Source: a bacterium (lineage in GTDB: Bacteria > SAR324 > JACQKK01). Taken from it: 64,000 nucleotides of DNA. A program made the translations under genes and the position numbers. How positions within the stretch are numbered: position 1 is the stretch's first letter; each line of letters begins with the position of its first letter. The notes under the pieces were generated by a model that did no database searches, was not told the origin of the DNA, and saw only the letters and a program-made list of their open reading frames with translations. Of this stretch, positions 1,205 to 62,834 are shown piece after piece. The stretch lies in contig OZ252237.1 in NCBI GenBank assembly GCA_965249525.1, forward strand, positions 1,156,443-1,220,442, written 5' to 3'.

Positions 1205-1980
1205 GGTGCAGCCTCCTGAGAAGAAAGACGGGTAAAAACCTTGACCACTGCTTGGGGAGAGTTTGCCTGCCCAGGCAGGATGGGGTATGGGTAAGTTGCT
1301 ATCTGTGCCTGAAAGCCGTATTGTGCCAGTTTTTGCTGCATGTTTGCTCCTTGCATATTTTCTCCTTGCATGTTTGCTCCCTGCATGTTTGCTCCTTGCA
1401 TATTTTCTCCTTGCATGTTTGCTCCCTGCATGGAAAACAGACGACCTGCAGGTGCCAAGAAACCCTGTGCCAATCGCAGCTGTACAGACACACTGCCAAA
1501 AGCACGACAGATAAGACCGTCAAAAGCCTGGTGCCAATTGGGCTGACGGGCTAATTGATAAGCATTGTCCACCATAATGCTGACATTGTCCAATGCTAAT
1601 AAGCGGCAAACTTCGGTTTGGAAAGCCGTTTTCTTGGTGGAACTTTCCAGACTGGTGACATGCTGCTGGGGCTGACAAACAGCAATCAGCAGCCCCGGCA
1701 AGCCCGCCCCGCTGCCAAGATCCAGCCAAGCTTTTGTTTGGGCAAAGCCAGGGACGGTTTGCACCACCAGGCAGTCATAGATGTGCCTTTGCCACAGCCG
1801 TTCTAAATGGAGATCTCTTTTAGAGACCAGATTGATACGACTGCCCCAGTGCAGCAGCAAGTGACAATAGCTTTGCAGCTGTTCCAGGGTGTGGGCATCC
1901 AAGCACATCCCCCGTTGTTTCAGGGCAGCACAGACAGCATCCAGACTACCCCTATCCCTGCCCACTGGCTGCTGCATCAT
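1201..1980 (-). CDS. rsmG: 16S rRNA (guanine527-N7)-methyltransferase RsmG/GidB, with an internal repeat insertion
   Basis: 259-aa ORF with a GidB-like N-terminus (LLLHWGSRINLVS) and SAM motif LDLGSGAGLPGLLIAV. Carries an in-frame MQGAN/MQGEN repeat. Confidence 0.9.
   Translation of the reverse strand: MMQQPVGRDRGSLDAVCAALKQRGMCLDAHTLEQLQSYCHLLLHWGSRINLVSKRDLHLERLWQRHIYDCLVVQTVPGFAQTKAWLDLGSGAGLPGLLIAVCQPQQHVTSLESSTKKTAFQTEVCRLLALDNVSIMVDNAYQLARQPNWHQAFDGLICRAFGSVSVQLRLAQGFLAPAGRLFSMQGANMQGENMQGANMQGANMQGENMQGANMQQKLAQYGFQAQIATYPYPILPGQANSPQAVVKVFTRLSSQEAAP
1336..1425. repeat. 15-bp tandem repeat x6 inside rsmG (YTGCATRTTTKCTCC)
   Basis: Direct reading of 1336-1425. In frame, encoding (MQGAN/MQGEN)x6. 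Confidence 0.9.
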
Positions 1981-2026
1981 AGCAGGTATATCGTCAAAAG
2001 TGATGATTGGAGTTCAGCAAGCCCAA

Positions 2027-3406
2027 TTAAAAGCCCCCTTGCAGCCCCACAGAATTGATGTTTCGTTCATAAGGTCTTGAGTTGGAGTCGTTATTGCTGG
2101 CAGTACTTTCCAGCAGGATATTCAAGCCACTGATCAAGCCCAGCAGCAGTCTGCCCTTGATGTGGGTGAGGGTGTCTTCACGCACTTCTAAGTCGCCGTC
2201 AGCTTTTTGGTAGCTGCGTTTTTGCTGCTGGTAGCTAAAGCTAAGGATGTAACGTGACCCAGAGATACGGGAATCAACAGCGATACCGTTATATTCATAT
2301 TCGCTGGCAACGCTGCCTTCAGAAGAATTTCCCAACAATATGTTGGTGCGCAACGATACTGCCTGCGATTGATCCCCCCAGCGAAAAGCCAATTTGCTGT
2401 CGTAATTGGTAACCCCATCTAGATCTTCATCAGCGAATTCTTTTAGCGTTAGCTTTAACTCAAGACCCAGACCACTAGCCCCCAGCAGATATTGACCAGA
2501 ACCGCCAGAAAAGCTAACAGATTGATAAAGCGCATAGTCATCCGTACCGCTTGTTTGGTTACCGGTATTGAGATGATTAAAGCTGTAATTCACTCGCAGC
2601 TGTTTGTCGTTATTGAAGCTCCATAAACGATTGAAGCCGAACACACCCGCACCTGTGTTGTATATATTCAAGTCTTCATCGTCATATTCAATTTGCTGCA
2701 CAGCCAGGTAGAGCTGGGTGCTGGCCTGGTTTAAGCCGACGATCAGGCTGGTAGCGGTACGATCTGCCTCTTGAATATTATCAGAGGAGATGGTGACGTT
2801 GTTATTGAAGGTTACTGTTTCGCTCAGGTCATTCCTGGGGTTGGAGTCTGAATCTGAGCGGTAGGCGTAAGAAACAAACCATTCTAGGGGAGGGCGCACC
2901 TTTTTTTCAGCTGATGATAAAGCTGCTTTTCGCTTTGTTGATGTGGTAGTGGATGTTGTCGGTTGCTTGGCAGCTTGGGCAAACGAGCCCCTCAGCGGTG
3001 AAACCGGCTTAACCACCCGCACTATAAAGATTCTCCTGCTGACATTACCATTTTCATCGGTGGCTTTTACACGAATTCTGTGTTGACGTCTTTGAAAGTG
3101 GTAGAGCTTGTTGATAGTAATAATGCGCCCGGGATTAATTTGCTGGTCTTTGCCATCAATTTGCACACGCACCACCCTATCGGTGTCCGTCACCACAAAG
3201 TCCACCAGTCTTTCACCACTGAGTACTTCTGTGGTCTGTGCCAATTCGGATGAGAGTACCCGAGGAGGCTGCTCTTCAAAGGGCAGCTGTGTCTGCTGTG
3301 CCCAGATCTGTGGCGTAAGCGCGAAAACATACACCAGCAATGCCCATACTGGCATCCCCGCTACAACTCTTTTGCTACAGCATATTGGCTGCCGCCTGGC
3401 TTTCAT
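2027..3406 (-). CDS. Secreted protein with a C-terminal outer-membrane beta-barrel-like domain
   Basis: 459-aa ORF with signal peptide (...FALTPQIWAQQ) and a T/S-rich linker (TTSTTTSTKRK). The C-terminal ~280 aa have alternating-hydrophobic strands and end ...GLQGGF, the aromatic C-terminus typical of OMPs. Directly downstream of the FecR-domain gene. Confidence 0.55.
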   Translation of the reverse strand: MKARRQPICCSKRVVAGMPVWALLVYVFALTPQIWAQQTQLPFEEQPPRVLSSELAQTTEVLSGERLVDFVVTDTDRVVRVQIDGKDQQINPGRIITINKLYHFQRRQHRIRVKATDENGNVSRRIFIVRVVKPVSPLRGSFAQAAKQPTTSTTTSTKRKAALSSAEKKVRPPLEWFVSYAYRSDSDSNPRNDLSETVTFNNNVTISSDNIQEADRTATSLIVGLNQASTQLYLAVQQIEYDDEDLNIYNTGAGVFGFNRLWSFNNDKQLRVNYSFNHLNTGNQTSGTDDYALYQSVSFSGGSGQYLLGASGLGLELKLTLKEFADEDLDGVTNYDSKLAFRWGDQSQAVSLRTNILLGNSSEGSVASEYEYNGIAVDSRISGSRYILSFSYQQQKRSYQKADGDLEVREDTLTHIKGRLLLGLISGLNILLESTASNNDSNSRPYERNINSVGLQGGF

Positions 3407-3564
3407 GGAATTTACTTATTAGAAGCGAAAAAGAACGGGGTGAGGTGCGGTTACTACCCACACATAAATAACAAAACACACCCTGATAATTACTCTTCCT
3501 TTTTAATACAGATGGTTATGCCTCCTTTTTAATACATCCGTCTTAACTCCCAAGTTCCGATGTA

Positions 3565-4587: not shown

Positions 4588-4875
4588 GTATAATCCCCAC
4601 CTTTCTTGAATAATCTTCATAATTGAACTGCTGTGGTGATTTTCATCACAAAAATTTCACTAAAAAAGTATCACACCACAGATTTCATCTAATTTATCGC
4701 ATGAATTATCGCATGAATTGTCTTATCAATTATTGCCTGAAATATCGTATATATTATCGCATCAAGCCCCCCAACCTGCTTGCCAGACAACCCATCTGAA
4801 CATAGCCTGTTATTCATTATCTAATGAAATCACAATTTTTTCAAAGTTTTTCTGAAAACAAGGTAAAAACAATGT

Positions 4876-4947
4876 GAGAACACATTGAGAACACATTGAG
4901 AACACATTGAGAACAACTTGAAAAAAACTTGAAAAAAACTTGAAAAA
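4876..4947. repeat. Two adjacent 11-bp tandem repeats (GAGAACACATT x3.7, CTTGAAAAAAA x3) upstream of atpC
   Basis: Direct reading. Ends 73 bp before the atpC ATG. Confidence 0.9.
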
Positions 4948-5020
4948 TTCCTGCTTGCCTTCCTGCCCCCATAAGGGCATCTATAAGGCCTGTTGTGATA
5001 TTTTGATTGATGTGTTTGTC

Positions 5021-5443
5021 ATGCCTGCTGAAACCCTGCAATTGGAAGTGCTTACCCGCGAGAAAGTCCTCTTGCGCACCCACACCGCTTGGGTCACCCT
5101 GCCCGCTGAGGCCGGCGAAATGGGAATCTTGCCCCAGCACGCCCCCTTGGTCTCCACCCTGGACTCCGGTGTGCTGCGTTGTGAACAGCAGGGCAAAACC
5201 CTCTCTGTTGCCATTCACTACGGCTATGCCCGTGTGGATGGAGAAAAAGTGGTTGTCATGTGCAAACTGGGAGAATTGGCTTCAGAAATAGATCTGCAGC
5301 GCGCACAAACTGCTGAAAAGAAAGCCCAACAAGCCCTGCAGCAAATCAGCAGCCCCGCCGATACTCCCCAGGCTGCCCTTCAACAGCAGCAGCTGTACAC
5401 CTCCAAACTCAAACGCGCAGCCACTAGACAACAAGCCTTTTGA
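5021..5443 (+). CDS. atpC: F1 ATP synthase epsilon subunit
   Basis: From the internal ATG of track ORF 4940..5443: MPAETLQLEVLTREKVLLRTHTAWVTLPAEAGEMGILPQHAPLVSTLDSGVLR..., the typical epsilon beta-sandwich followed by a helical tail. Confidence 0.85.
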   Translation: MPAETLQLEVLTREKVLLRTHTAWVTLPAEAGEMGILPQHAPLVSTLDSGVLRCEQQGKTLSVAIHYGYARVDGEKVVVMCKLGELASEIDLQRAQTAEKKAQQALQQISSPADTPQAALQQQQLYTSKLKRAATRQQAF

Positions 5444-5661
5444 ATAAACTCCGCCTGCCCAGCCAGGCTTGCAAAACCTGCTATACCTTTATTTTAGTAA
5501 GCAAAAAGCATCTCTCAGCCACTCATGGACTAGAAAAAAGGATTGCATTCCCTGCTAGGAATACTCCACACTCAAAGTGTGTTAGTAAAATGGATGTGGC
5601 AGCCAATATTTGCAGCAGATTAGATATGCTGGCAAATTTGCACGCCATAGAGCATCGCCCA

Positions 5662-5706
5662 GGTGAGTGATAAAATGGTGAGCGATAAAATGGTGAGCGA
5701 TAAAAT
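5662..5706. repeat. 15-bp tandem repeat x3 (GGTGAGYGATAAAAT) upstream of the PBP gene
   Basis: Direct reading. Ends 26 bp before ATG 5732. Confidence 0.9.
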
Positions 5707-5731
5707 TTTGTAGCTATCCAAGGGAGGCGTT

Positions 5732-8365
5732 ATGAGAACCAAAGGAACCAAGCTGTTGAAGCTGTTGAAATCGCGGTTATTGGTGCAAGTTGTCCTAGGA
5801 TTGGGCGGCTTGGCATTGCTGTCTTTGCTGTGGTTAAACATCTCTTTGCCCTCCATCAGCACTTTGGAGGACCCCGAATTCAGTCTGCCCACCATCATCT
5901 ATGACCGCCACGGCAATCGTGTGGACGAGTTGTACATCAAAAGGCGTAAATTGGTGCAGTATCAAGAGCTGCCCAGCCACCTGATCAATGCCTTGCTAGC
6001 CAAAGAAGATGCCCGCTTTACCGAACACCACGGTATTGATCCTATCCGCATCATGAAGGCCGCTTGGATTAACCTGCTGGCACTAGATACCTTGCAGGGT
6101 GCCAGTACCTTAACCCAGCAGACGGCGCGTCAGTTCTTTTTGACTCTGGAGAAAACCTGGCTGCGAAAAGTACGCGAGATACTGCTGGCACTAAAGATAG
6201 AGCGTCAGTTTAGCAAGTCGCAGATTATTACCCTTTATCTCAACAAGGTCAATTTTGGGGATGCCTGGGGGGTGTCTGCAGCAGCGGAGCATTATTTTGA
6301 CAAAGAGGTGCAGGATCTTTCCTTAGAGGAAGCAGCCACCTTGGTGGGACTGCTTCCTGCGCCTAATCGTTACAAGCCCACACGCAATCCGCATTTGGCT
6401 TTGCAGCAGCGGAATATTGTGCTCAAACGCATGGAGGAAGAGAAAGCCATCAGCCAGTTGGAGTATTTGTCTGCTGTGGGGCGTCCCTTGACGCTTTCAC
6501 TGCAGGGGAGGCCAGATTCAAGGGCTGCGGCATACTATGTGGAACTGGTAAGGCGACAGCTGCAAGAAAAATTTGGCTCCAAGAAACTGTACGAGGGAGG
6601 GCTGCATATATACACCGCTATGTCCTTAAACTTTCAGCAGGCAGCGCATGCGGCCTTGCTAAAAGGAATAACAAGTCTAACGCTGCGACAAGGATACCGC
6701 CCCCCAGAAGCATTGGCACCATTGAACGCTGAGGGCAAACCCCGCAAAGAGCTGCTAGCGAGTTTGAATCCCCTGCTGTCTTCTCCCAATCCCCAACAAC
6801 GGCTGGGGAATTTGAAAGCCAATGATATCCTGCACGCAGTGGTGGTAAAGGTAAACAGCCGTCAAGCCACCTTGCAGCTGTCACCCCGTCAACAAGGTCT
6901 GCTGTTACTCAGCGACGCTCGGCAGCTTTGGAAGGCTGTGCTGCGCTACCCTAAACCCAAATATAAGATGCAGCAAAGGGCATTTTTCAATCTCACCCAA
7001 GCTCTCCAGCCAGGCAGCATCATTCAGGTAACCCCCTTGAATGCCAGGCAAGGCGAACTGCAGCGCTTTCAACTGCACCAAGAACCCTTGAGCAATGGAG
7101 GCCTGTACGCAGCCAATCCACACACTGGAGAAGTATTGGCTATGGTAGGGGGCATTCGCTTTGGCCGCTCCCAGGGAGAAAGCGAATTCATTCGCGCCAC
7201 CCAAGCAGAAAGACAACCAGGTTCCGCCTTTAAACCCATCATCTACGCAGCTGCCCTAGATGAAGGCTTCAACCCTGCTACCATCCTGGATGACAGCCCC
7301 CGCACCTTCGTACTCCAAACTGGAAAAAAACACACCCCCAACAACTATGACCAACGCTTCTTAGGAAATATCAGCTTCCGCAACTCCCTGGTACGCAGCC
7401 GCAATGTACCCACCGTCCAGCTGGTACATTCTCTGGGGGCTACACGCATCATTGAATACGCCAAGAATTTAGGCATCTCTACCTACATCCCCAATGAAGG
7501 ACTCATCGCACTGGGAACACACTCGGTCAAATTATCCGAACTCACCCGCGCCTACGGAGTCTTTGCTACGGGAGGACAACTCGCCCAACCCATCTACATC
7601 CTGCGGGTAGAAGACAGCAACGGCAATATCCTGCTGGAAAACACCCCCCAAAAACAAGAAGTCATGTCACCTGACACCGCCTACCTCATCACCGATATCC
7701 TGCGCGATGTCGTCCGCAGACCCGGGGGTACCGCTTATGGAGTCATGCATTCCATTAAGCATCCCGCAGCAGGCAAAACCGGCACCACCCAAGATTATAC
7801 CGATGCCTGGTACATAGGCTTCCTTCCCCAACTCACCGCAGGCATCTATGTGGGAATTGATGATCAACGCAAATCCCTTGGACCCTATGAAACAGGCTCG
7901 CGCACAGCCGCCCCCATCTGGAGAGACTTCGTCAACACCATCTCTCCCCGACTAACCCTCCAATCCTTCCACCAACCCAACTCCGTAGTGGCACACCGCG
8001 TAGGAAAAGACGGACAAATACTTTCAAGCTGCCAAACACAAGAAGGCGGACGCTACGAACTATTTAAGCGAGACTCCGTCCCCCACGGAATCAGAGACAG
8101 CAATTGCGGCAATGTCTTCACCCAAAACATCGCAGCCCCCCTCAACGACTTCAACCAACAAGACCCAGAAACCTCCGCAAGCCTAGACCCCGCCCCCCTG
8201 GAAGACTTTGACATCCCTGCGGATGAAATCACCAGCACCGAGATCGAGCTAGAAGACCTGCCAGAAGACCTGCCCGCAGACCTGCCCGCAGACCTGCCCG
8301 CAGACCTGCCCGCAGACCTGCCGCAAGAAAAAGTATTTAGTACAGAAGAAGATTTTGAACTCTAG
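5732..8365 (+). CDS. mrcA: Class A penicillin-binding protein (PBP1A: glycosyltransferase + transpeptidase)
   Basis: 877 aa, GGGAGG SD. GT51 motifs EDARFTEHHGID and GASTLTQQ. Transpeptidase motifs SAFKP, SRN and KTGT. Acidic C-terminal tail with (DLPA) repeats. Confidence 0.9.
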   Translation: MRTKGTKLLKLLKSRLLVQVVLGLGGLALLSLLWLNISLPSISTLEDPEFSLPTIIYDRHGNRVDELYIKRRKLVQYQELPSHLINALLAKEDARFTEHHGIDPIRIMKAAWINLLALDTLQGASTLTQQTARQFFLTLEKTWLRKVREILLALKIERQFSKSQIITLYLNKVNFGDAWGVSAAAEHYFDKEVQDLSLEEAATLVGLLPAPNRYKPTRNPHLALQQRNIVLKRMEEEKAISQLEYLSAVGRPLTLSLQGRPDSRAAAYYVELVRRQLQEKFGSKKLYEGGLHIYTAMSLNFQQAAHAALLKGITSLTLRQGYRPPEALAPLNAEGKPRKELLASLNPLLSSPNPQQRLGNLKANDILHAVVVKVNSRQATLQLSPRQQGLLLLSDARQLWKAVLRYPKPKYKMQQRAFFNLTQALQPGSIIQVTPLNARQGELQRFQLHQEPLSNGGLYAANPHTGEVLAMVGGIRFGRSQGESEFIRATQAERQPGSAFKPIIYAAALDEGFNPATILDDSPRTFVLQTGKKHTPNNYDQRFLGNISFRNSLVRSRNVPTVQLVHSLGATRIIEYAKNLGISTYIPNEGLIALGTHSVKLSELTRAYGVFATGGQLAQPIYILRVEDSNGNILLENTPQKQEVMSPDTAYLITDILRDVVRRPGGTAYGVMHSIKHPAAGKTGTTQDYTDAWYIGFLPQLTAGIYVGIDDQRKSLGPYETGSRTAAPIWRDFVNTISPRLTLQSFHQPNSVVAHRVGKDGQILSSCQTQEGGRYELFKRDSVPHGIRDSNCGNVFTQNIAAPLNDFNQQDPETSASLDPAPLEDFDIPADEITSTEIELEDLPEDLPADLPADLPADLPADLPQEKVFSTEEDFEL
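8255..8326. repeat. 12-bp tandem repeat x6 (GACCTGCCCGCA) in the PBP C-terminal tail
   Basis: Direct reading. In frame, encoding (DLPA)n. Confidence 0.9.
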
Positions 8366-8448
8366 CAGGCCCGCCAATTAGGAAACATCGCCTCGGCGCA
8401 GCTGCTGGGGGGGCTTTATTTAGGCGCGGCGTGGCGAGCCTCCAGGCA

Positions 8449-9093
8449 CTAACAGCTGATGCATAAAAGAGAATGCATCCCGTTACAAGAAGATGCTGAG
8501 CCGCCACCTATTCTATTGACATCGTCACTTCCACTCAGACCAGCAGCTCCAATGCTAGCTGTGGTGGACCAATTAGTGCAGGTAAAGCTAACAGCCTCTC
8601 TTGTAAGACCTGTCCAGTAAGACTGAGAGGAGGCACTATCTGTAACCGCATGCATTACTGTGGGGTTTTCATTAACCTCATAGAATTGCTGATAGCTGTC
8701 GGCAATTATGGTGGTGTCATCAGGGCGGTAGACCTTGCGGGTATCATCATCTTTTATAATCATATCGGGAGTAAATGCATCGTCTGCTATCACTGCCTGG
8801 TGGGTATAGCCCACGCTGTCGGCATGGGGCAGCACACTAGAATCGCTGTCCCCTTCCCTCTGGCATACGGCATCAGCAGCAGCTACTCCACTCAAGTCTC
8901 CCACACTGAAATCTCCGTCAGAGGTCGCAACGCTAACCCATAGATAAATCCTTTGGGGTGCAGGCAGGGTGGGCGTACCACCACCGCCTCCGCCGCCTCC
9001 GCAGGAGGCAAGCAGGCTGCCCAGCAGCATCACTGCCAGTCCGCTTGTCGGCAGCAGCTTCCAAGCTGTTTTGGTTGAAAGTTGAGAAAACAT
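8449..9093 (-). CDS. Secreted lipoprotein of the YLWVS...YRPDD...YWTG...LLC(V/I)S family (DUF1554-like); paralogue of the 32.2-35.0 kb genes
   Basis: ATG at 9093 with AAGGAG 7 nt upstream (the track ORF runs to 9195). Lipobox LLASC followed by a Gly run. Shared motifs IYLWVSVATS, AADAVCQREG, GYTHQAVI, VYRPDDTT, YWTGL, CTNWS, LLCISC. The family name is from memory of Pfam DUF1554 and was not searched. Confidence 0.7.
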   Translation of the reverse strand: MFSQLSTKTAWKLLPTSGLAVMLLGSLLASCGGGGGGGGTPTLPAPQRIYLWVSVATSDGDFSVGDLSGVAAADAVCQREGDSDSSVLPHADSVGYTHQAVIADDAFTPDMIIKDDDTRKVYRPDDTTIIADSYQQFYEVNENPTVMHAVTDSASSQSYWTGLTREAVSFTCTNWSTTASIGAAGLSGSDDVNRIGGGSASSCNGMHSLLCISC

Positions 9094-9139
9094 GATAATA
9101 CTCCTTAAAAAATTCCAAAAAAGCCGTGCTAAAAAATAT

Positions 9140-9230
9140 GCATGGTTCTTGTGCATGGTTCTTGCACATGGTTCTTGTGCATGGTTCTTGCACATGGTTC
9201 TTGTGCATGGTTCTTGTGCATGGTTTTTGC
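9140..9230. repeat. 13-bp tandem repeat x7 (RCATGGTTCTTGY) between divergent lipoprotein and rlpA genes
   Basis: Direct reading. Starts 47 bp upstream of the lipoprotein ATG (9093) and ends 68 bp before rlpA ATG 9298. Confidence 0.9.
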
Positions 9231-9297
9231 ACCCGCATAGATTTGATGCGTGTGTGGAAGGGAATTTGAGCAGTTTTTATTAAGAGGCTTTGCGTGC

Positions 9298-9954
9298 ATG
9301 CGGTTTGTGTGGTTGTTGATTTTATGTGTATGGGGCAGTGGGGAATTGGCTGCGGAGACCGCTTGCAGGGGGGTGAAGGGGGAGGATGGGTTATCGCCGT
9401 GGTTGAGGGGGATAGCTTCTTGGTATGGGCCTGGATTTCACGGCAAGCGCACCGCCAACGGTGAGATTTATGATCAGCATGCCTTAACCGCAGCGCATCC
9501 CAATTTGCCGATGGGAACGCGCATTGAGGTTAAGAATCTGCACAATGGTCACAAGATTAAGCTGCGGGTTAATGATCGTGGGCCTTATTCCCGTGGGCGT
9601 GTTTTGGATGTATCGCGCACGGCTGCCATTCAGCTGCAAATGCTGCGAGTCGGGGTTGCTACGGTGCAGATTCAGGTCTTGTGCTGGCCAACAGATATAG
9701 ATCAGCACTTGGGGCTGATTGCCTATAGACAGTATGTGGTGCAGGTGGGGGTGTTTGACACCCAACTCGAGGCACAGGCAGCCTTGAATCAGCTGGAGAC
9801 GCAGGTGCAGATGCCCCTGCTTTTGGATCTGCGCCCCCATAAGGCTTACGCCCTGGTGGCGGGACCTTATTACTCAATCAGAAAAGCCCGACAGACAGCC
9901 ACCCTGCTGCAAAAAAAGGGTTGGAGTACCTTCATCCGACAGCGGCGAAAATAA
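9298..9954 (+). CDS. rlpA: Septal ring lytic transglycosylase RlpA-like protein (DPBB domain + C-terminal SPOR domain)
   Basis: GIASWYGPGFHGKRTANGEIYDQHALTAAHPNLPMGTRIEVKNL...KIKLRVNDRGPY. The C-terminal YVVQVGVFDTQLEAQAAL...ALVAGPY is SPOR-like. Start taken at the internal ATG that gives signal peptide MRFVWLLILCVWG. Confidence 0.85.
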   Translation: MRFVWLLILCVWGSGELAAETACRGVKGEDGLSPWLRGIASWYGPGFHGKRTANGEIYDQHALTAAHPNLPMGTRIEVKNLHNGHKIKLRVNDRGPYSRGRVLDVSRTAAIQLQMLRVGVATVQIQVLCWPTDIDQHLGLIAYRQYVVQVGVFDTQLEAQAALNQLETQVQMPLLLDLRPHKAYALVAGPYYSIRKARQTATLLQKKGWSTFIRQRRK

Positions 9955-9974
9955 GCCAAATGCCACTCTCCTGC

Positions 9975-11415
<1,441 letters not shown>

Positions 11416-11432
11416 TCCTTTTGTTAGGCATT

Positions 11433-11474
11433 GCGTATTGGTGTTTGCGTATTGGTGTTTGCGTATTGGTGTTT
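11433..11474. repeat. 14-bp tandem repeat x3 (GCGTATTGGTGTTT) in the atpG-atpD spacer
   Basis: Direct reading. Confidence 0.9.
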
Positions 11475-11676
11475 TGCTGCTGGAGGCTGCTGGAAGCTGC
11501 GCTTTGCTGCCAGCTGGAAAAAGGGGATGATGCAGCATCTGCTGTCATCACCATACTGCTGAATCACAGCCTGTGCCAGTACCTGATTTGCCTTTTGTGC
11601 ATGATAATGGCTTGCCCGCAAAGACCAGACCTGAGTGCCTGGCTGCCTGTGTGACTGCCTGGCTGGCTGTCTGCTT

Positions 11677-11740
11677 GGCTGGCTACCTGCATGGCTGGCT
11701 ACCTGCATGGCTGGCTACCTGCATGGCTGGCTACCTGCCT
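11677..11740. repeat. 16-bp tandem repeat x4 (GGCTGGCTACCTGCAT) in the atpG-atpD spacer
   Basis: Direct reading. Embedded in a longer degenerate GGCTG/CCTG-rich stretch, ~11634-11780. Confidence 0.9.
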
Positions 11741-11789
11741 GGCTAGCTGGCTGCCTGCTTGGCTGCTTGGCTGCCTGGCTGCTGGGTCA

Positions 11790-12713
11790 TCATAGTGCCT
11801 GCGCTCCGTTGATGATTTCTATCAGTTCGCGGGTAATCATAGACTGGCGCAGACGGTTGTATTGCAGGGTGAGGGAATCTATCATCTCGCCAGCGTTCTT
11901 GGTGGCAGCTTCCATAGCTACCATGCGGGCACCGTGTTCGCCCGCTTCGGTTTCCAGCAGGGCGGTATAGGCTTGGTTGTGCAGATAATCTGTCAGCAGC
12001 CTTTCCAGCAGCAGCCTCGGTGAGGGTTCCAGCAGTATTTGGCGGGGCAGTTCGGCGGGCGGGGTGGTTGCGGGTCCTGCTGCGGTGGTTGGGGCTGTGG
12101 CTGGGGTGGTGGAATCTGCCTCTGCGGTCTCTGCTGCCAGGGCAGCCAGCGGCAGCAGCTGTGTCAGCACTGGGGTCTGCTTGATAGGGTTGTAAAAGCG
12201 ATTGTGCGCCAGCCACAACTGACCGGTTTCACCCCGCAGGAAGATTTGGGCTAATTCTTCCATCAGGGCATCCATCTGGCTGAAGCGCTCAACTTCTGGC
12301 TGTTGAACAATGGAGCGCTCCAGCTTGTGGTCGCCACTCAGACGCATACGGAAAAACTCCTGCCCCTTGCGACCAAACACATACAGCGCACAGGCGGGCT
12401 GCTGCTGCAAAAAACCCAGCACCTCCTTGTTCAATTGCGAATTAAAAGCCCCCGCCAAGCCTCTGTCAGAAGTCAAGATAATCAAGGACACATGCTGATT
12501 TTGATTGGACTCAAAGAAGGCGTGTCCCGCATCTGCCTGTTCTGCCAGCCAGGCAAGGGTTTTAGAGAGCTCATGGGCATAAGGCTGTGCCTGCTGGGCG
12601 CGCATTTGGGCGCGGTTGAGCTTAACCGCAGAGACCATGCGCATGGCGCTGGTAATCTGTCGGGTGTTGGTGACGCTGTCTATGCGTCTTTTAAGCTCGC
12701 GGGGGGTGGGCAT
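11790..12713 (-). CDS. atpG: F1 ATP synthase gamma subunit
   Basis: 307 aa. N-terminal RIDSVTNTRQITSAMRMVSAVKL and C-terminal ITRELIEIINGAQAL. Contains a low-complexity insert (AAETAEADSTTPATAPTTAAGPATTPP). Confidence 0.9.
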   Translation of the reverse strand: MPTPRELKRRIDSVTNTRQITSAMRMVSAVKLNRAQMRAQQAQPYAHELSKTLAWLAEQADAGHAFFESNQNQHVSLIILTSDRGLAGAFNSQLNKEVLGFLQQQPACALYVFGRKGQEFFRMRLSGDHKLERSIVQQPEVERFSQMDALMEELAQIFLRGETGQLWLAHNRFYNPIKQTPVLTQLLPLAALAAETAEADSTTPATAPTTAAGPATTPPAELPRQILLEPSPRLLLERLLTDYLHNQAYTALLETEAGEHGARMVAMEAATKNAGEMIDSLTLQYNRLRQSMITRELIEIINGAQAL

Positions 12714-12764
12714 AAAAAAGTGCTGACTTTAAGAACCTGACTTAGAACTAGGAAGCATGATCTT

Positions 12765-12824
12765 GCTGCGCGAAGCCTGGTCTGGCTGCGCGAAGCCTGG
12801 TCTGGCTGCGCGAAGCCTGGTCTT
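12765..12824. repeat. 20-bp tandem repeat x3 (GCTGCGCGAAGCCTGGTCTG) in the atpA-atpG spacer
   Basis: Direct reading. The last unit runs into the atpA stop codon (12823-12825). Confidence 0.9.
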
Positions 12825-14334
12825 ACTGCGCTTGGAAGGTCTGCTTGAATTGCTGGATGGCAGCTTCCAGCTGTTGTGCCAGCTCATCAGAAATATCCTG
12901 TTGGGTGGCTAATTGTTCACGCAGTGAGGCGTGGCTGCTGCTGATAAATGCCAAAAACTCGCTTTCAAATTTCTTTACCGCAGCTATGGGAACATCATCC
13001 AAGCCGCCGTGGGTGCCCACAAAAAGACTCAGCACCTGATCCACCACATCCATGGGCTGGTACTGATCCTGCTTCAACAACTCCGTCAAGCGTGCTCCGC
13101 GTGCCAGCTGGGCTTGGGTAGCCTTGTCCAAATCGCTGCCGAATTGGGCAAAGGCAGCCTTCTCACGATACTGCGCCAACTCCAATCGCAGGGTTCCTGC
13201 CACCTTCTTCATGGATTTCACCTGCGCCGCCCCTCCCACACGAGAAACCGACAGCCCCACATTAATGGCAGGACGCAGACCGGCATTAAACAAGTCGGTG
13301 CTGAGGAATATCTGACCGTCGGTGATGGAAATCACATTGGTAGGAATGTAGGCAGAAATGTCTCCCGCTTGGGTTTCAATGATAGGCAGGGCGGTGAGCG
13401 AACCTCCTCCTTGGGAGGGGTTCAACTTGGCAGCCCGTTCCAGCAGACGGCTGTGCAGATAAAAGACATCGCCAGGGTAGGCTTCGCGCCCAGGAGGACG
13501 CCGCAGCAGCAGCGACAGCTGACGATAAGCCACCGCCTGCTTGGAGAGATCATCATACAGGCACAGCACATGTTTGCCCTGATGCATGAAGTACTCCCCG
13601 ATGCTGCACCCCGCCATGGGTGCGATGTACTGCAAAGGGGCGGGGTCTGCGGCACTGGCAGACACCACGATGGTATAATCCATAGCGTTTTCTTCTTCCA
13701 GCCGTTGGACAACATTGACCACACTGGAATTCTTTTGACCGATAGCCACATAAATGCAAATCACATCTGTATGGCGTTGGTTGATGATGGTATCCACGGC
13801 AATGGCGGTTTTGCCCGTTTGACGGTCGCCGATAATCAGTTCGCGCTGCCCACGTCCGATGGGTATCATGCCGTCTATGGCTTTAATGCCAGTTTGCAGG
13901 GGCTGCCTCACCGGTTCTCGGGCGATGATGCCTGGTGCCACAATATCTATCAGACGACTGTCTTGAGCTTTAATGGGCCCCTTGCCGTCTATGGGCTGCC
14001 CCAGGGGGTTGACCACGCGTCCCAGCAAGGCGTCTCCTACGGGGACCGCAGCGATTTTTTGGGTGCGATGGACGGTATCCCCTTCTTTGAGGTGCTGCTG
14101 GTCTCCCATAAGCACAGCACCCACATTGTCTTCTTCTAGGTTTAAGGCAATGCCACTGAGGTTTTGCGGGAAGCTGAGGAGTTCGCCCATTTGCACCTGT
14201 TCCAGTCCGTGAATGCGGGCGATGCCATCACCGACGGTGAGTACGGTGCCTATTTCTTCGCCCTTGGTTTTAAGGTCAACAGCAGCCAGTTCTTTTTGCA
14301 GGATAGTGCTGATTTCTTCGGCACGCAGTTTCAT
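12823..14334 (-). CDS. atpA: F1 ATP synthase alpha subunit
   Basis: 503 aa. Walker A GDRQTGKT, and [27 protein letters not shown]. Confidence 0.97.
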
Positions 14335-14353
14335 GGAGATTTCCTTTTACTAG

Positions 14354-14421
14354 GTTTTTTAGAACAATGGGTTTTTTGGAACAATGGGTTTTTTAGAACA
14401 ATTAGTTTTTTGGAACAATTT
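14354..14421. repeat. 17-bp tandem repeat x4 (GTTTTTTRGAACAATGG) in the atpH-atpA spacer
   Basis: Direct reading. Confidence 0.9.
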
Positions 14422-14444
14422 GGAAGGGACTTATGAGACCTTGG

Positions 14445-14981
14445 CTAGCTGGGGTTCAGCTGCTGCTGGATAGACTGTAATTTGCCACGCAGGCTGCCGT
14501 CCCAGCTGCGGCTGCCAGCGGTGACGGTAACTCCCCCCAGCAATTGGGGGTCGGTTTCCAGCTGCAGGATGACTTTTTTGTGGAGCATGCGTTCTAGTTG
14601 ATGCTGGAGCTGCTGTTGATGCTCTTGCGAGAGAGGAGAAGCCGAGCATACCACAGCTTGGATGCGTCCTGCGGCTTCATCAGCGATGGCAGCGAATGCC
14701 TGTGCCAAGGGAACAAGCAGCCCCAGGCGGCGTTTTCTGCCCAACACAGCGGGGAGATTTTTTAGTACTGTGGGAGCTTGGACTCGCTGAAACAGGGCTT
14801 GGGTGATGCCAATGCCAGCCTCATAAGCGGGACTCTCCAAGGCATGACGCAAGGGGGCGGACTCTTGCAGGGCTTGGGCTACCGCCTGGAGACTGCCAGC
14901 AGTCTGTTCTACCTGATTGTGTTCTTCCGCCAAATGAAACACTGCCAAAGCATAGCGTTTTGCCACCACAGCTGCACTCAT
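14445..14981 (-). CDS. atpH: F1 ATP synthase delta (OSCP) subunit
   Basis: 178 aa, VAKRYALAVFHLAEE... OSCP-like. ATGA overlap with the atpF stop. Confidence 0.85.
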   Translation of the reverse strand: MSAAVVAKRYALAVFHLAEEHNQVEQTAGSLQAVAQALQESAPLRHALESPAYEAGIGITQALFQRVQAPTVLKNLPAVLGRKRRLGLLVPLAQAFAAIADEAAGRIQAVVCSASPLSQEHQQQLQHQLERMLHKKVILQLETDPQLLGGVTVTAGSRSWDGSLRGKLQSIQQQLNPS

Positions 14982-48577: not shown

Positions 48578-48653
48578 TAGTATCTTTTCAGTACCTTTTT
48601 TCAGTACCTTTTTTCAGTACCTTTTTTCAATACTTTTTTTCAGTACCTTATTT
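48578..48653. repeat. 13-bp tandem repeat x~6 (CAGTACCTTTTTT)
   Basis: Direct reading. Ends 17 bp before ATG 48670. Confidence 0.9.
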
Positions 48654-48669
48654 TCAGCAGAGTTGCAGC

Positions 48670-53723: not shown

Positions 53724-53815
53724 TTAACAGCCAGAGGTTAACAGCCAAGGGTTAACAGCCAAGGGTTAACAGCCAGGGTTAACAGCCAGGGGTTAACAGC
53801 GGGGGTTAAAACAGC
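53724..53815. repeat. 13/14-bp tandem repeat x~7 (GGTTAACAGCCARG) between convergent mmsA and ldcA
   Basis: Direct reading. The last units overlap the ldcA stop codon (53806-53808). Confidence 0.9.
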
Positions 53816-56258: not shown

Positions 56259-56430
56259 GGAGCTTTACGATGCCTTTCTTGAAACGAATAGACCTACCAG
56301 TACCACCAGGCAAAACGACAACAACTGTCTTCTGCTAAACTTAGTATGCCATTTCATGCCCATAACGGGCAACAGGGCACAAGAGGCCTGCAGCCTGCGT
56401 GCTTTGCATCATAAACTACCCATGCTCTTC

Positions 56431-56491
56431 ATGCGAAAAAACCATCATGCAAAAAACTACCATGCAAAAAACCATCGTCCAAAAAACCAGG
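56431..56491. repeat. 15-bp tandem repeat x~4 (ATGCAAAAAACYAYC) spanning the speA start
   Basis: Direct reading. Encodes MQKTT MQKTI VQKTR. Confidence 0.8.
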
Positions 56492-58486
56492 CAGCAGACC
56501 CCTTGGAGTATTCAAGACGCCCTGGAACTGTACCAGATAGCAGGCTGGGGAGGGGGGTATTTTGGCATCAGCCCTCAGGGCTGTATGACGGTGCGCCCCC
56601 GAGGGGTGGATGGTCCAGAAATAGAACTGCCAGCTTTGTTGAAAGCAGCCCCGCAGCTTTCCCCACCTTTTTTGGTGAGATTTTTAGACATTTTGCAGCA
56701 TCGCACCCACACCCTGCATCAACAGTTTGAAAAGGCCATGCAGTCCAGCAGCTGGCAGGGCGGGTGGAAGGTCTTGTATCCCTTGAAGGTCAATCAGCAG
56801 CATTCTGTGGTGAAGACCTTGCTGCAGGCAGGTACACAGTGGCAGATGGGGCTTGAGGCTGGTTCACGACCAGAGTTGCTGGCTGCCATGGCTATGCTGC
56901 TGCAGCAAGCATCAGGGAAGCTGCTGGTGTGCAACGGATACAAAGATACGGGGATGTTTCGCCTGCTGCTGGAAGCCCAGCGGCTGGGGTTGGAATGCTT
57001 TATGGTGGCAGACCATCTGGATGAATTGACAGCAACGCTCAAACTGGCTAAGGCAGAAGGTTTGGTGATTCGGCTGGGGATACGGGTGCGCTTGGCGACT
57101 TCAGGCGGAGGGCGCTGGGAGGATTCCAGCGGAGACGCCTCCAAGTTTGGCTTGGGGGTGGTGGAATTGATGGAAGCCGTACGCGTCTTGCAACAAGCGG
57201 ATGCTTTGGGATGGCTGCGTATGCTGCATATCCATTTGGGCAGCCAGCTGCCGCGTTTGGACAGTCTGCGACAAGCCTTGCAGGAGGCAGGACGCTTGTA
57301 TGTGGAACTGCGCCGTCTGGGATGCCAGGTGGACTGCCTGAATGTGGGGGGAGGCTTGGGAGTGAACTACAACCCCGCTGGCAGTGAAACCAGCTTTGGC
57401 ATTGGGTACACCGAACTGGAATACGCACAATGTGTTACAGAGACCCTGGCAGAGATTTGCCGTCAGGCGCACCAACCCCATCCACTGCTGCTGAATGAGC
57501 CCGGCCGCGCCCTGACTGCCCACCATGCCATGCTGGTGATGCCCGTGCTGCGAGCAACTTCCCGCAGCGCACACCCCCCGCTGCCACCGCCCGCCAAAGA
57601 CAGCTCTTCCTCCTCAACCGCTGAGGCCTTGACAGAACGCCTGCATGGCGCTCTCGCCGCAACCCATCCAGACAACCTGCACAGCCAGTGGCGCACAGCA
57701 CTGCAAATCCGTGCCGAAGCCCAGCAGCATTTCTCCCTAGGGATGCTCTCATTAAGTGAGAGCGCACAACTGGAACAGGGCTGTTGGCAGCTGGCACACC
57801 ACATCCAAGACTTGGCAGTCCAGACAACCACAGCTTTCCAAGGGACTCCTCTCAAAGACCTGCAGGCTTGGCTGAACCAGCATTACTTCTGCGGATTTTC
57901 TGTGTTCCAATCGCTGCCAGATGCCTGGGGACTGGGGCAGGAATTCCCCCTAGCCCCTCTGCAGCGCCTGCATCAGCGCCCCTCCTGCGCTGCTGTGCTG
58001 CAAGACATCACTTGTGATTCCGATGGACTGCTGCGTCAATATGTGGGACCCCAGGGGCTGCAGCCCTGCCTCCCTCTTCATTCCCTAAAACCCCATGAAC
58101 CCTACTGGCTGGGGGTGTTCCTGCTGGGGGCTTATCAGGAAACCCTAGGAGAACAACACAACCTCCTAGGTCCCACCCAGGTACTCCAGGTTCAACTAGA
58201 TAAAAACAACCGCTGGCAGCAGCAAGTCACATCCTCCAACACAGATGCCTCCAGCATGCTCCAAGGCGTTGGCTACTCCCCCCAGCAGCTGCTGCAAGTG
58301 CTGACGGCCGCTGCCACTAAATCCCTCCAACAAGGACACCTCACCCCAGCGCAGGCAGCCCGTCTGCGAAGCTATTACACCCAAAACCTCAAAGCCAGTC
58401 CCTATCCCCAAAGTCCCTCTCCCCAAAGTCCCTCTCCCCAAAGTCCCCCTCCCCAAACCCCCCCTCCCCAAACCCCCCAGCCATAA
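56447..58486 (+). CDS. speA: Biosynthetic arginine decarboxylase
   Basis: WSIQDALELYQIAGWGGGYFGISPQG..., a PLP-fold type III body. Pro/Gln/Ser repeat tail. Confidence 0.9.
   Translation: MQKTTMQKTIVQKTRQQTPWSIQDALELYQIAGWGGGYFGISPQGCMTVRPRGVDGPEIELPALLKAAPQLSPPFLVRFLDILQHRTHTLHQQFEKAMQSSSWQGGWKVLYPLKVNQQHSVVKTLLQAGTQWQMGLEAGSRPELLAAMAMLLQQASGKLLVCNGYKDTGMFRLLLEAQRLGLECFMVADHLDELTATLKLAKAEGLVIRLGIRVRLATSGGGRWEDSSGDASKFGLGVVELMEAVRVLQQADALGWLRMLHIHLGSQLPRLDSLRQALQEAGRLYVELRRLGCQVDCLNVGGGLGVNYNPAGSETSFGIGYTELEYAQCVTETLAEICRQAHQPHPLLLNEPGRALTAHHAMLVMPVLRATSRSAHPPLPPPAKDSSSSSTAEALTERLHGALAATHPDNLHSQWRTALQIRAEAQQHFSLGMLSLSESAQLEQGCWQLAHHIQDLAVQTTTAFQGTPLKDLQAWLNQHYFCGFSVFQSLPDAWGLGQEFPLAPLQRLHQRPSCAAVLQDITCDSDGLLRQYVGPQGLQPCLPLHSLKPHEPYWLGVFLLGAYQETLGEQHNLLGPTQVLQVQLDKNNRWQQQVTSSNTDASSMLQGVGYSPQQLLQVLTAAATKSLQQGHLTPAQAARLRSYYTQNLKASPYPQSPSPQSPSPQSPPPQTPPPQTPQP
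58406..58480. repeat. 15-bp tandem repeat x5 (CCCCAAAGTCCCTCT) at the speA 3' end
   Basis: Direct reading. In frame (PQSPS)n. Confidence 0.9.
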
Positions 58487-61240: not shown

Positions 61241-61375
61241 GGCTATGTTTCTCAGCACCTATGAACTTCCTTATAAAAAACTTCCCGCACTTACCCCAAG
61301 CATACAAACAAATAGCGCAGTCTGGCAACCCCCAGCCTGCCGTGATGCCTGGAACTTGCCCGTACAGCTTTTCTG

Positions 61376-61450
61376 TTTGCCTGGACTTCTTGTCTTGGGA
61401 CTTCTATTTGCCTGGACTTCTTGCCTGGGACTTCTTGCCTGGGACTTCCT
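61376..61450. repeat. 15-bp tandem repeat x5 (CTTGCCTGGGACTTC) straddling the stop codon of the 61404 gene
   Basis: Direct reading. Units lie on both sides of the TAG (61404-61406). Confidence 0.85.
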
Positions 61451-62834
61451 GCAAAGCAGCCAGCGATCGCCAAGCAGCAGGAAACACCGCTGCAGTAATG
61501 CCTGCCAGCCAGGCTGAACCTTGCTGCCTGGCTTTGGGCCTTAGGGCAGCGATGGTGCGGGTGTAGACACCTTCTGCTTGGGCTGCTGCTTCATCCAATG
61601 CCTGTATGAAAGTTGCTGGCGGGGGAGGCAGCTGCTGCTGGACAGCCTGAACCTGGCGCATGAGTGCAGGCCAATGTCGTGCCCAGGCTTCTTGCTGGCT
61701 GCGTGCCTCAGAAGACCTGGCAGCAGTGTCTGCTGACATGGTTGGGATTTTTTGCTCCAGTTTTTTGATAGAAGCAGGCAGACATGCTGCCAAGCGGGTG
61801 CACTCTGTCAAACGATGTTCCAGGTTGCTTTGAACCGCCAGCAGTCCCTGATGATACAGGCTGCTGCGCGCTGGGTTGTTTTTTGCCAAGTGCTTGCGCA
61901 CATACAGATACCAAGCTTCCAGCCCGCACAATTCTGCGATTATGCGCATTTGGCTTTGATAGATATGCTCAACGGCACCATAGACCTGGCTGTCATAGGC
62001 ACGCAGACGCCCAGCAGCTGAAGCAGCCAATGGGGCGGGGAGGTTCAACCCCGCTGACAAATGCCTGCCATAAACTCCCCCTGCTGGTGCCAGTGCGCCA
62101 AAATCAGCCGAAATAGGACCCACCAGGCTGCTGTTGCCACCGATGAAAATGCGTTGGCTGCCAAGAAACACCCCTTGGGTTACATTACCCAAACAGGAAC
62201 CAGTAGCTTTATCGCCCCGAGGGGTATAGTTAAAGTGCACGGTACCGCTGCCGACCTCGCTGAAGCAGCCAGGCTGACTGCTTGTTCCACCGCTGATAAA
62301 CACATCACACCAGTTAATCTGACTGCCCAAGGTAACCCAAGGAAACAGGATGCTCATTTTGGTATCGGTATGCTGGGCACTGCGGGCGTTTTCTTCAAAC
62401 AGTGTCCCGCTGCGGGCGTTAAAGCCCATACCTGTGATACTATGCTCTCCTGCGTCTCCGCCCAAAAATACCGCCCCCTCTGCGCATCCCGCACCCATAA
62501 CACAATGGGGACCCACACAGCTGTCACGCAGCACCACCTGCCCCTGCACCCCCAAACGACAGCCCTCTCCCACCTGGCTGTCCACCAAGGTAACAGCCCC
62601 AGCCTCCCCTATGACAGCAGAGGCCCCCACTTGTGTGCTGCTTCCCTCCATACGAACCCCCGGCATCAAGCAGGCTCCAGGGGCTATGGACTCTAAGCAA
62701 ACATCTTGCGCAATACATACTTGCTGCGGCACAGGTATCTCCACCCCCTGGTCACGCAGCCAGTTGACAGCCGTGCTGTCATAGAAAGCGGTCTTCGCTG
62801 CAATCTTCGCTGCAATCTTCGCTGCAATCTTCAC
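61404..62834 (-). CDS. Left-handed beta-helix (hexapeptide-repeat) protein with a helical C-terminal domain
   Basis: 476 aa, GTG start. Successive [LIV]-G-x-x-x-x turns (VIGEAGAVTLVDSQVGEGCRLGVQGQVVLRDSCVGPHCVMGAG...). Function not assignable. Confidence 0.6.
   Translation of the reverse strand: MKIAAKIAAKIAAKTAFYDSTAVNWLRDQGVEIPVPQQVCIAQDVCLESIAPGACLMPGVRMEGSSTQVGASAVIGEAGAVTLVDSQVGEGCRLGVQGQVVLRDSCVGPHCVMGAGCAEGAVFLGGDAGEHSITGMGFNARSGTLFEENARSAQHTDTKMSILFPWVTLGSQINWCDVFISGGTSSQPGCFSEVGSGTVHFNYTPRGDKATGSCLGNVTQGVFLGSQRIFIGGNSSLVGPISADFGALAPAGGVYGRHLSAGLNLPAPLAASAAGRLRAYDSQVYGAVEHIYQSQMRIIAELCGLEAWYLYVRKHLAKNNPARSSLYHQGLLAVQSNLEHRLTECTRLAACLPASIKKLEQKIPTMSADTAARSSEARSQQEAWARHWPALMRQVQAVQQQLPPPPATFIQALDEAAAQAEGVYTRTIAALRPKARQQGSAWLAGITAAVFPAAWRSLAALQEVPGKKSQARSPGK
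62793..62831. repeat. 12-bp tandem repeat x3 (CTTCGCTGCAAT) at the 5' end of the 61404..62834 gene
   Basis: Direct reading. In frame (KIAA)x3. Confidence 0.9.

Follow-up and report, generated by a model that had tools for sequence, protein, structure and literature searches.

The 64-kb window analyzed here (the whole stretch of 64,000 nucleotides at positions 1,156,443 to 1,220,442 of contig OZ252237.1, GenBank assembly GCA_965249525.1), which derives from a SAR324-related bacterium, is densely occupied by short tandem repeat arrays, at approximately 25–40 times the abundance in ordinary bacteria. Nearly every array has its own unit sequence, most differ in length between closely related strains, and those located inside genes are built almost exclusively from units divisible by three. 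These arrays are probably true variable number tandem repeats (VNTRs), formed from local sequence, mostly neutral or slightly deleterious, and driven by slippage in a small genome under weak selection.

Arrays were called with Tandem Repeats Finder (TRF; settings 2,5,7; score of at least 50), and overlapping rows were merged. Across the window, 58 TRF rows resolved into 42 separate arrays occupying 3826 bp (6.0% of the sequence), or 0.66 arrays/kb; a score threshold of at least 30 returned 97 rows. Since 30 dinucleotide-preserving shuffles yielded only 0–1 arrays each, head-to-tail copies of units of about 9 bp or more exceed chance, as is characteristic of VNTR or minisatellite-type repeats, and an earlier note on this DNA, which had counted more than 35 distinct tandem repeats from the sequence alone, is borne out. 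Its description of units of 9–24 bp in 2–11 copies fits most arrays (1.9 to 11.0 copies), the exceptions being two arrays with 46-bp units and a domain duplication of 438 bp. As background, 80 loci around atpA, taken from a range of bacteria (1.25 Mb; AtpA identity at most 68% among the matches listed), contained 0.057 arrays/kb, making the window approximately 12-fold denser. With stricter criteria (3 or more copies, period 9–30 bp, score of at least 70), the window retained 30 arrays (0.47/kb) versus 2 in the 1.25 Mb of background (0.0016/kb), a difference of approximately 290-fold. Settings of 2,7,7 were additionally applied for comparison with a published table (PMC3287509) and gave 0.84 TRF rows/kb, 5.4% coverage and a median period of 15 bp; row density reached 3.4/kb in L086, a contig of a related strain introduced below. 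The corresponding published values are 0.019 rows/kb and 0.38% coverage for Escherichia coli K-12, 0.045 rows/kb and 0.7% for Anaplasma marginale, and 0.13 rows/kb and 6.3%, with a mean period of 139 bp, for Ehrlichia ruminantium, which tops the table; mean periods in ordinary genomes range from 64 to 140 bp (PMC3287509). The unusual tandem-repeat density of the window is thereby confirmed.

Copy number was compared between strains using two contigs from one European Nucleotide Archive sample, L086 (7.4 kb) and L087 (21.6 kb), which represent co-occurring strains. They are 98.8% identical to each other and 91.5–97% identical to the window over collinear matches (approximately 95–96% within genes), and they carry 1.22 and 1.06 arrays/kb, respectively. 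When window arrays were matched to L087 by their flanks, 15 of 18 orthologous arrays differed in length, by −85 to +228 bp; the units remained mostly recognisably related, and the period had changed in some. Most arrays predate the split of approximately 5% between the window and L087. Between L086 and L087, 81 substitutions and 17 indels were found in 6.5 kb, and 13 of the indels were at least 5 bp long and located in array regions. Indels of 12, 15, 30 and 42 bp match local periods, one of 65 bp corresponds to 3 × 15 + 20 bp, and those of 31 and 34 bp fall in compound arrays, where they are ambiguous as whole-unit steps. By our own tally, about 8 of the 9–10 arrays shared by L086 and L087 differ in length. 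The atpF gene of L086 alone has a 246-bp array (approximately 16 units of 15 bp), and L087 alone has a purine-rich array; these are array births or losses. A rough calculation places the rate of length change per array on the order of 100 times the per-site substitution rate. The three strains therefore carry the same arrays at different copy numbers, sometimes with different periods, and the combination of copy-number polymorphism at orthologous loci with length changes in whole-unit steps is that of VNTRs. The active local duplication proposed in the earlier note is supported by these comparisons.

The arrays of the window are as follows, with copy numbers after the multiplication sign, a strand for those assigned one, and orthologous sites in L086, L087 and L081 (a locus of the sister genome described below) where compared:
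1336–1432, minus strand: internal array of rsmG, 15 bp × 6.4; encodes (GANMQ/GENMQ)6, an insertion relative to the L081 ortholog
4694–4762: divergent spacer between a FecR-like gene and atpC, 12 bp × 5.8; the L087 ortholog is 25 bp longer
4868–4943: upstream of atpC, 11 bp × 6.3 (TRF)
5662–5706: atpC–PBP1a spacer, 15 bp × 3.0; 4.9 copies in L087
8254–8322, plus strand: C-terminal tail of PBP1a, 12 bp × 5.8, (DLPA)n; 15-bp (ELPKE)n arrays at the homologous site in L081
9139–9229: DUF1554a/rlpA divergent spacer, 13 bp × 7.0 (TRF)
11364–11423, minus strand: atpD start, 14 bp × 3.6, start codon repeated (ATGAGCAAA); 2.4 copies in L087
11431–11474: atpG–atpD spacer, perfect 14 bp × 3.1 (TRF)
11631–11781: atpG–atpD spacer, 16 bp × 7.9; L087 has an 8 bp × 5.9 array instead and is 80 bp shorter
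12752–12831, minus strand: atpA stop codon, 20 bp × 4.0; TAA in the first unit ends AtpA
14353–14419: atpH–atpA spacer, 17 bp × 3.9; ortholog +164 bp in L086 and +228 bp in L087
15616–15710, minus strand: 5′ end of atpF (b subunit), 12 bp × 6.3, in frame; ATG or GTG in each unit
16282–16318: atpF′/phoH2 spacer, 14 bp × 2.7; 7.9 copies in L087
17695–17789, minus strand: 5′ end of PhoH2, 12 bp × 7.9, (KNRA)n, upstream of the canonical PIN domain start; ortholog +36 bp in L086 and +24 bp in L087
18823–18940: M48/DUF3047 spacer, perfect 15 bp × 7.9; 4.9 copies in L086, 3.1 in L087
19022–19055: same spacer, 15 bp × 2.3; same length in L087
19197–19281: same spacer, 11 bp × 7.7; L087 is 153 bp longer
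19326–19435: same spacer, 12 bp × 9.2 (TRF)
20680–20734: upstream of mgtE, 12 bp × 4.6; 5.6 copies in L087
25208–25274: between GIY-YIG paralogs, 18 bp × 3.7 (TRF)
26280–26328: 18 bp × 2.7; unit as at 25208, copied with the gene duplication
26956–27751, plus strand: in-frame duplication of a DUF4357 domain, 438 bp × 1.8, divisible by three (TRF)
30172–30297, plus strand: N-terminal extension of family-4 uracil-DNA glycosylase (UDG), 12 bp × 10.5, (QPTP)n linker
30984–31019: downstream of UDG, perfect 15 bp × 2.4 (TRF)
31909–32028: upstream of DUF1554b, 46 bp × 2.0 followed by 10 bp × 3.1 (TRF)
32416–32458, plus strand: internal array of DUF1554b, 15 bp × 2.9, in the body of the open reading frame (ORF)
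33165–33296, plus strand: linker of lipoprotein DUF1554c, 12 bp × 11, encodes (T/M)PDP
33936–34128: upstream of DUF1554d, 46 bp × 3.0 followed by 15 bp × 4.1 (TRF)
36642–36729: ald/matE divergent spacer, 12/24 bp; abuts the ald start codon
39179–39229: upstream of cytochrome c, 12 bp × 4.2 (TRF)
39443–39497, plus strand: signal-peptide end of cytochrome c, 15 bp × 3.7; cleavage site duplicated too (QLAWV QLAWV QPAWA QPAFA)
39761–39796: downstream of cytochrome c, 9 bp × 4.0 (TRF)
42238–42275, plus strand: weak repeat in an 832-aa gene, 20 bp × 1.9, 83% matches; marginal, with a twin at 44828–44865
48307–48348, minus strand: yacG start, 11 bp × 3.8; ends in the yacG ATG
48570–48657: spacer beside yacG, 13 bp × 6.8 (TRF)
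53724–53809, minus strand: ldcA stop, 14 bp × 6.3; TAA of the ldcA stop in every unit
56429–56489, plus strand: speA start, 15 bp × 4.0; start duplicated (ATG CAA AAA ACC)
58397–58472, plus strand: C-terminal array of SpeA, 15 bp × 5.1, (SPSPQ)n; approximately 20 aa beyond the canonical C-terminus
61371–61452, minus strand: 3′ end of a 476-aa ORF, 14 bp × 5.3; source of the ORF's final 49 nt and stop codon
62792–62832, minus strand: 5′ end of the 476-aa ORF, perfect 12 bp × 3.4, directly after GTG; (KIAA)n

The reading-frame rule was examined by pooling the window with three loci of the same clade and by counting as in-gene only arrays lying wholly inside called genes. The period was divisible by three in 18 of 20 in-gene arrays versus 25 of 54 intergenic arrays (Fisher p = 5e-4). 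Both exceptions are the weak 20-bp repeat of 1.9 copies, which occurs in each copy of the duplicated 832-aa gene; every in-gene unit present in at least 2.5 copies is divisible by three. The arrays securely within ORFs (rsmG, PBP1a, UDG, DUF1554c, DUF1554b, cytochrome c and the C-terminal array of speA) have units of 12 or 15 bp only. The earlier note's rule for units in coding sequences thus holds, as does its proposal that selection on frame filters the duplications. It had listed a gene called LbH with repeats of 12 and 15 bp; the second of these has a unit of 14 bp and is positioned at the end of the ORF, including the stop. This gene is the 476-aa ORF, the one real edge case.

The 5′ arrays of atpF, PhoH2, UDG and speA, which the earlier note had counted as coding, are in frame but lie upstream of the N-termini defined by full-length family models; judging from the sequence, they are probably translated or contain the start codon. 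In PhoH2, translation ahead of the PIN domain could start only at a TTG, which lies before the array and has a good ribosome-binding site. In atpF, the array opens with an ATG overlapping the stop codon of the preceding gene and offers an in-frame ATG or GTG in every unit; the orthologous array is in frame with fewer units in L086, and out of frame in L087, where an internal ATG is used. Each 14-bp unit at atpD carries ATGAGCAAA, and three upstream copies form 5-codon upstream open reading frames (uORFs) on the minus strand (MSKTL*, MSKKL* and MSKKL*), in which each TGA overlaps the next ATG (ATGA) until the last reaches the true atpD start. The only clear Shine–Dalgarno motif in this leader precedes the first array copy.

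The atpA 3′ end shows the frame filter at a single site. L086 has a single copy, and its AtpA ends in ...QAQPDQAS at 508 aa. L087 has three 15-bp and two 20-bp units, read as translated QPDQA repeats followed by a frameshifted tail, giving 536 aa, whereas the window has four 20-bp units behind a TAA in the first unit and an AtpA of 503 aa. The suggestion that even core genes could vary in terminal length is thus borne out by AtpA in three strains, and the gene calls of atpF, PhoH2 and PBP1a also vary in length among strains. PBP1a is called at 877 aa in the window (5732–8365) and at 775 aa in L087 (15756–18083), where the acidic C-terminal tail with its 12-bp array falls downstream of the called stop.

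The units are largely private. Their mean pairwise identity equals that of shuffled units, no k-mer is enriched among them after multiple-test correction, and they show no hairpin bias, folding no better than shuffled units (mean z = 0). Hairpin-driven slippage was rejected on this basis. The earlier statement that each repeat has a different sequence is mostly correct, but 9 of 820 unit pairs are at least 85% identical (0.7 expected), owing to gene-scale duplications and one shared motif, GTTCTAAAA. The groups that are not private comprise gene-duplication pairs, the 46-bp units upstream of DUF1554 genes, and the GTTCTAAAA motif of a small dispersed element. Private units without a corrected k-mer signal or hairpin tendency support the sequence-independent process that had been proposed.

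A dispersed element of approximately 45–50 bp, bounded by GTTCTAAAAAA, was observed at 32019–32071, 35008–35060 and 35470–35517, with related 46-bp tandem units at 31909–32001 and 33936–34075. The GTTCTAAAAAA 9-mer occurs 13 times versus 0.28 expected. Two copies of the element flank a glyoxalase gene, and its motif is also amplified in the atpH–atpA array.

For the placement of arrays, gene ends were adjusted by homology, which leaves approximately 87.5% of the window coding. Arrays occupy 26% of intergenic bases versus 1.6–3% of coding bases. Of the 41 spacers that reach 40 bp, 22 hold an array, and of the 28 that reach 100 bp, likewise 22; the earlier claim of a repeat in nearly every spacer is therefore overstated in general and valid only for the longer ones. 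Contact with a start or stop codon was found for 7 of 30 spacer arrays (the atpD, ald, yacG and speA starts; the atpA, ldcA and 476-aa ORF stops). Arrays abutting or including such codons thus exist as described, but not in excess, because random placement would give 4.6 (p = 0.16). Most gene names in the earlier note are backed by family searches, which identified rsmG, PBP1a, atpC, atpD, atpG, atpA, atpH and two atpF-type genes; PhoH2, an M48 peptidase, mgtE, purA and a family-4 UDG; four DUF1554 lipoproteins, ald, matE, cytochrome c and yacG; and two M16 peptidases, an aldehyde dehydrogenase, ldcA, speA and aconitase. The LbH label is not supported; the 476-aa ORF has no significant Pfam match (Hexapep E = 0.51). 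Scans of the window for tRNAs and Rfam families returned no matches.

The nearest named relatives are 'Candidatus Lambdaproteobacteria' and 'SAR324 cluster' metagenome-assembled genomes (56–58% identity for PBP1a, 73–78% for AtpA). A closer sister genome (contig ctg17151_62x_c, 1,599,138 bp, GC content 44–45%; the contig of the window's genome measures 1,724,560 bp) has PBP1a 70% and AtpA 81% identical to those of the window. Two of its loci, 400 kb apart, contain 0.40 and 0.70 arrays/kb, with private units of 12–23 bp unrelated to those of the window. Among these arrays, two with 15-bp units lie in the PBP1a C-terminal tail, and a further 15-bp array sits on the atpD start. In the sister locus L088, the atpH–atpA spacer holds a 14-bp array of 22.6 copies that is unrelated to the window's array in the same spacer, and the sister RsmG has no array. 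Short arrays are essentially lacking from L082, L083, L085 and L089, which are more distantly related. A further relative (L084/L090; GC content 0.50; two contigs, 771 and 540 kb long, of a single sample) carries near-perfect intergenic tandem repeats with long units of 46, 49, 52, 66, 142, 174 and 295 bp rather than short ones (L084:5230–22132 and L090:3152–18435), resembling the Ehrlichia ruminantium pattern. The dense sister genome and the distant relatives without arrays indicate a trait of a small clade, not of the window alone. In publications on SAR324 dealing with tandem repeats or reduced genomes, no account of such arrays was found.

Over 11 orthologous genes of the window and L087, dS was 0.064, dN 0.022 and dN/dS 0.34, with values by gene of 0.08 for atpA, 0.45 for atpH, 0.52 for atpF′ and 0.54 for PBP1a. 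Purifying selection thus seems relaxed, as would suit a small population or a life restricted to a host; these organisms may be host-associated.

Tandem duplication in the window extends to larger scales, namely 46 bp, 438 bp, genes of approximately 1 kb and genes of 2.6 kb. Four GIY-YIG/DUF4357 genes lie beside a fused double-DUF4357 gene at 22186–27781, and copies 1 and 4 match at 99–100% identity over the compared stretches of 300 bp. Two 832-aa genes without a Pfam match (42106–47203) are 97–98% identical. Three of the four DUF1554 lipoprotein paralogs stand in tandem. In two of the four (32184–32310 and 32997–33160), the signal peptide and lipobox (…LLGALLASCGGGG…) are out of frame with the body through one extra A each, a +1 shift; these could be pseudogenes, programmed shifts or consensus errors. 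The paralogs at 8449–9093 (minus strand) and 34209–34949 are intact.

The atp genes of the window are split (4940–16218), with atpC apart on the opposite strand and no atpB or atpE nearby. L087 has an extra C5 DNA methylase gene and a 244-aa gene between atpC and PBP1a (L087:19086–20081), both absent from the window. In L088, the operon (11535–15225) is invaded by N6/N4 methyltransferase and SocA_Panacea genes between atpA, atpG and atpD, and in L090 an N6/N4 methyltransferase gene (8449–9255) is inserted between atpH and atpA.

We infer that slippage generates the length variation and that a replication or repair defect is its cause at the level of the lineage. A stretch of 9–24 bp, often at the very start or end of a gene, would initially be duplicated in tandem; at the atpA site, where an unexpanded copy is available for comparison, the duplication junction has 0–2 nt of flanking microhomology. 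Once two copies are present, out-of-register realignment during replication (slipped-strand mispairing) would add or remove one to many units. The rsmG array, in which a perfect 45-bp block of three units is present 2.2 times, points to steps of several units at once. Point substitutions would slowly diverge the units. Inside ORFs, persistence would be limited to units divisible by three and to linkers, the ends of signal peptides and the tails at either terminus. An array at a 5′ end would persist if each unit keeps an in-frame start codon or if the upstream copies form tiny uORFs. Any period would be tolerated at 3′ ends, because the array replaces only the tail and brings its own stop codon, and the 14-bp array ending the 476-aa ORF indicates that such periods can be absorbed. 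The abundance of arrays in the lineage would likely reflect a raised rate of slippage or duplication together with weak purifying selection.

Several observations weigh against this explanation. CCWGG is the top 5-mer in the units (9 of 41 versus 2.3 expected; uncorrected p = 3e-4, failing correction for approximately 280 tests), which suggests that sequence independence is not absolute. Exact two-copy duplications outside arrays occur at background frequency (0.156/kb); without such a surplus, the excess of arrays may reflect fast expansion or long persistence more than frequent births. Among intergenic arrays, periods divisible by three are slightly over-represented (25/54, p = 0.06), which neutrality alone would not predict, and certain types of site (the atpD start, the atpH–atpA spacer and the PBP1a C-terminal tail) carry arrays in two genera.

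Other explanations were considered alongside neutral slippage. The source contigs come from long-read metagenome assemblies, and two DUF1554 genes contain single-base frameshifts, so arrays might be assembly or polishing artefacts; this is effectively refuted, because three independent contigs of the species share the same arrays with unit-level differences and a separate genome from another sample (L081, L088) shows the same phenomenon. Array copies moreover carry substitutions, in-gene arrays keep the reading frame, and other long-read contigs of relatives lack short arrays. An origin of the arrays as copies from a dispersed family of mobile or regulatory repeats (repetitive extragenic palindromes, REP; miniature inverted-repeat transposable elements, MITE; or iteron-like) is very improbable. 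The GTTCTAAAAAA-bounded element does occupy no fewer than five places from 31.9 to 35.5 kb, with its motif amplified in three arrays, but nearly all other units are mutually unrelated, with a pairwise identity equal to that of shuffled units, the window has no Rfam or tRNA matches, and the arrays consist of local gene-end sequence copied head to tail. Private units, absence of hairpin bias and lack of Rfam matches likewise separate them from REP elements and bacterial interspersed mosaic elements (BIME), MITEs and clustered regularly interspaced short palindromic repeats (CRISPR), the sole exception being that element.

Selection could instead maintain the arrays as tuning knobs or contingency loci, with copy number adjusting the expression or properties of housekeeping genes across strains. 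Arrays on the start codons or 5′ leaders of atpD, ald, yacG, speA, atpF and PhoH2, different alleles in co-occurring strains, the regular atpD uORF ladder with its ATGA overlaps, and the same site types hit in the sister genus would all suit this idea. We nevertheless regard it as improbable, given that contact with start and stop codons is no commoner than at random, that arrays are equally common in convergent 3′ spacers and inside operons, and that the affected genes are housekeeping rather than surface genes. On/off switching is impossible with in-gene units (at least 2.5 copies) that are divisible by three, and relaxed selection favours neutral accumulation. Some arrays may still have been co-opted, such as the ATGA-coupled ladder before atpD. 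Another proposal, a specific form of the mutational explanation, is a dedicated or lineage-specific lesion, in lagging-strand flap or primer processing or through loss of single-strand exonucleases, that produces duplications of approximately primer size (11–15 nt). Periods peak sharply at 11–15 bp across the clade, compared with means of 64–140 bp in ordinary genomes (PMC3287509), and so narrow a peak suggests a replication-linked cause, for example flap, primer or exonuclease processing; microhomology of only 0–2 nt at the atpA site and the confinement of the trait to one clade point the same way. Nascent two-copy duplications are not in excess, however, and the more distant relative has long-unit repeats (46–295 bp) instead, which leaves this lesion unlikely as the explanation. 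The clade being a natural 'duplication mutator', in which changed lagging-strand primer or flap processing or single-strand exonucleases seed and expand 11–15 nt duplications genome-wide, is a tentative idea. If it were true, approximately 1000 arrays per 1.7 Mb genome would be expected by extrapolation, and core proteins, ATP synthase subunits among them, would have 5′ leaders, starts and termini that evolve as VNTRs.

This lineage would be a second, independent small-genome case, in an unrelated phylum, of non-coding DNA dominated by actively varying tandem repeats. As one mutational process acts across spacers, starts, stops and ORFs, the filters of frame and position become directly readable, as at the atpA 3′ end, where a 15-bp expansion is translated in one strain and a 20-bp expansion lies behind a new stop in another. 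Array-rich and array-poor relatives both exist, and a comparison of their repair genes could reveal a function that suppresses short tandem duplication in bacteria. In practical terms, the arrays are very high-resolution strain markers, and gene calls at ORF ends are unreliable in array-rich genomes.

Among known systems, phase-variable contingency loci of Haemophilus, Neisseria and Campylobacter have units of 1–8 nt that shift the frame or promoter spacing of surface or host-interaction genes and so switch surface genes on or off. Both systems place hypermutable repeats in or beside coding starts, but the present arrays do not form a contingency-locus system, because their units are long (9–24 nt), preserve the frame within genes and occur at housekeeping genes (atp, rsmG, speA, udg and phoH2). 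Flap-endonuclease mutants (yeast rad27 and the E. coli polA 5′-exonuclease) accumulate short tandem duplications of approximately 5–100 bp at many loci. They resemble the arrays in this respect, but theirs is a laboratory mutant phenotype with flanking short direct repeats. Pathogen genomes typed by VNTRs contain tens of such loci per several Mb, whereas here approximately one array occurs per 1.5 kb, also inside core operons. The VNTR loci used for multiple-locus VNTR analysis (MLVA) in Yersinia pestis, Bacillus anthracis and Xanthomonas (PMC4045669) are otherwise alike in their 9–20-bp units, polymorphism between close strains and slipped-strand mispairing model. Marine Beggiatoaceae have abundant intergenic TAACTGA direct repeats, proposed to be regulatory, in which one heptamer is used genome-wide (PMC4679880); very many intergenic direct-repeat sets in one lineage are common to both cases, but nearly every array here has its own unit.

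The closest precedent is E. ruminantium, which has a small genome and mainly intergenic, locus-specific repeats and, according to published accounts (PMC10710844, PMC3287509), shows active expansion and contraction between strains. Its repeat share is similar (6.3% versus 5.4–6% here), but it belongs to the Alphaproteobacteria, a phylum different from that of the SAR324-related bacterium. Its units are approximately tenfold longer (mean approximately 139 bp, with steps of approximately 150 bp, versus a median of 15 bp), and its coding density is approximately 64%, versus a normal value of approximately 87.5% here. The window has approximately sixfold more loci per kb (0.84 versus 0.13 TRF rows), and, unlike in E. 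ruminantium, many of its arrays extend into start or stop codons or the ends of ORFs. In unit size class and density per kb, these arrays are unmatched among the few genomes compared.

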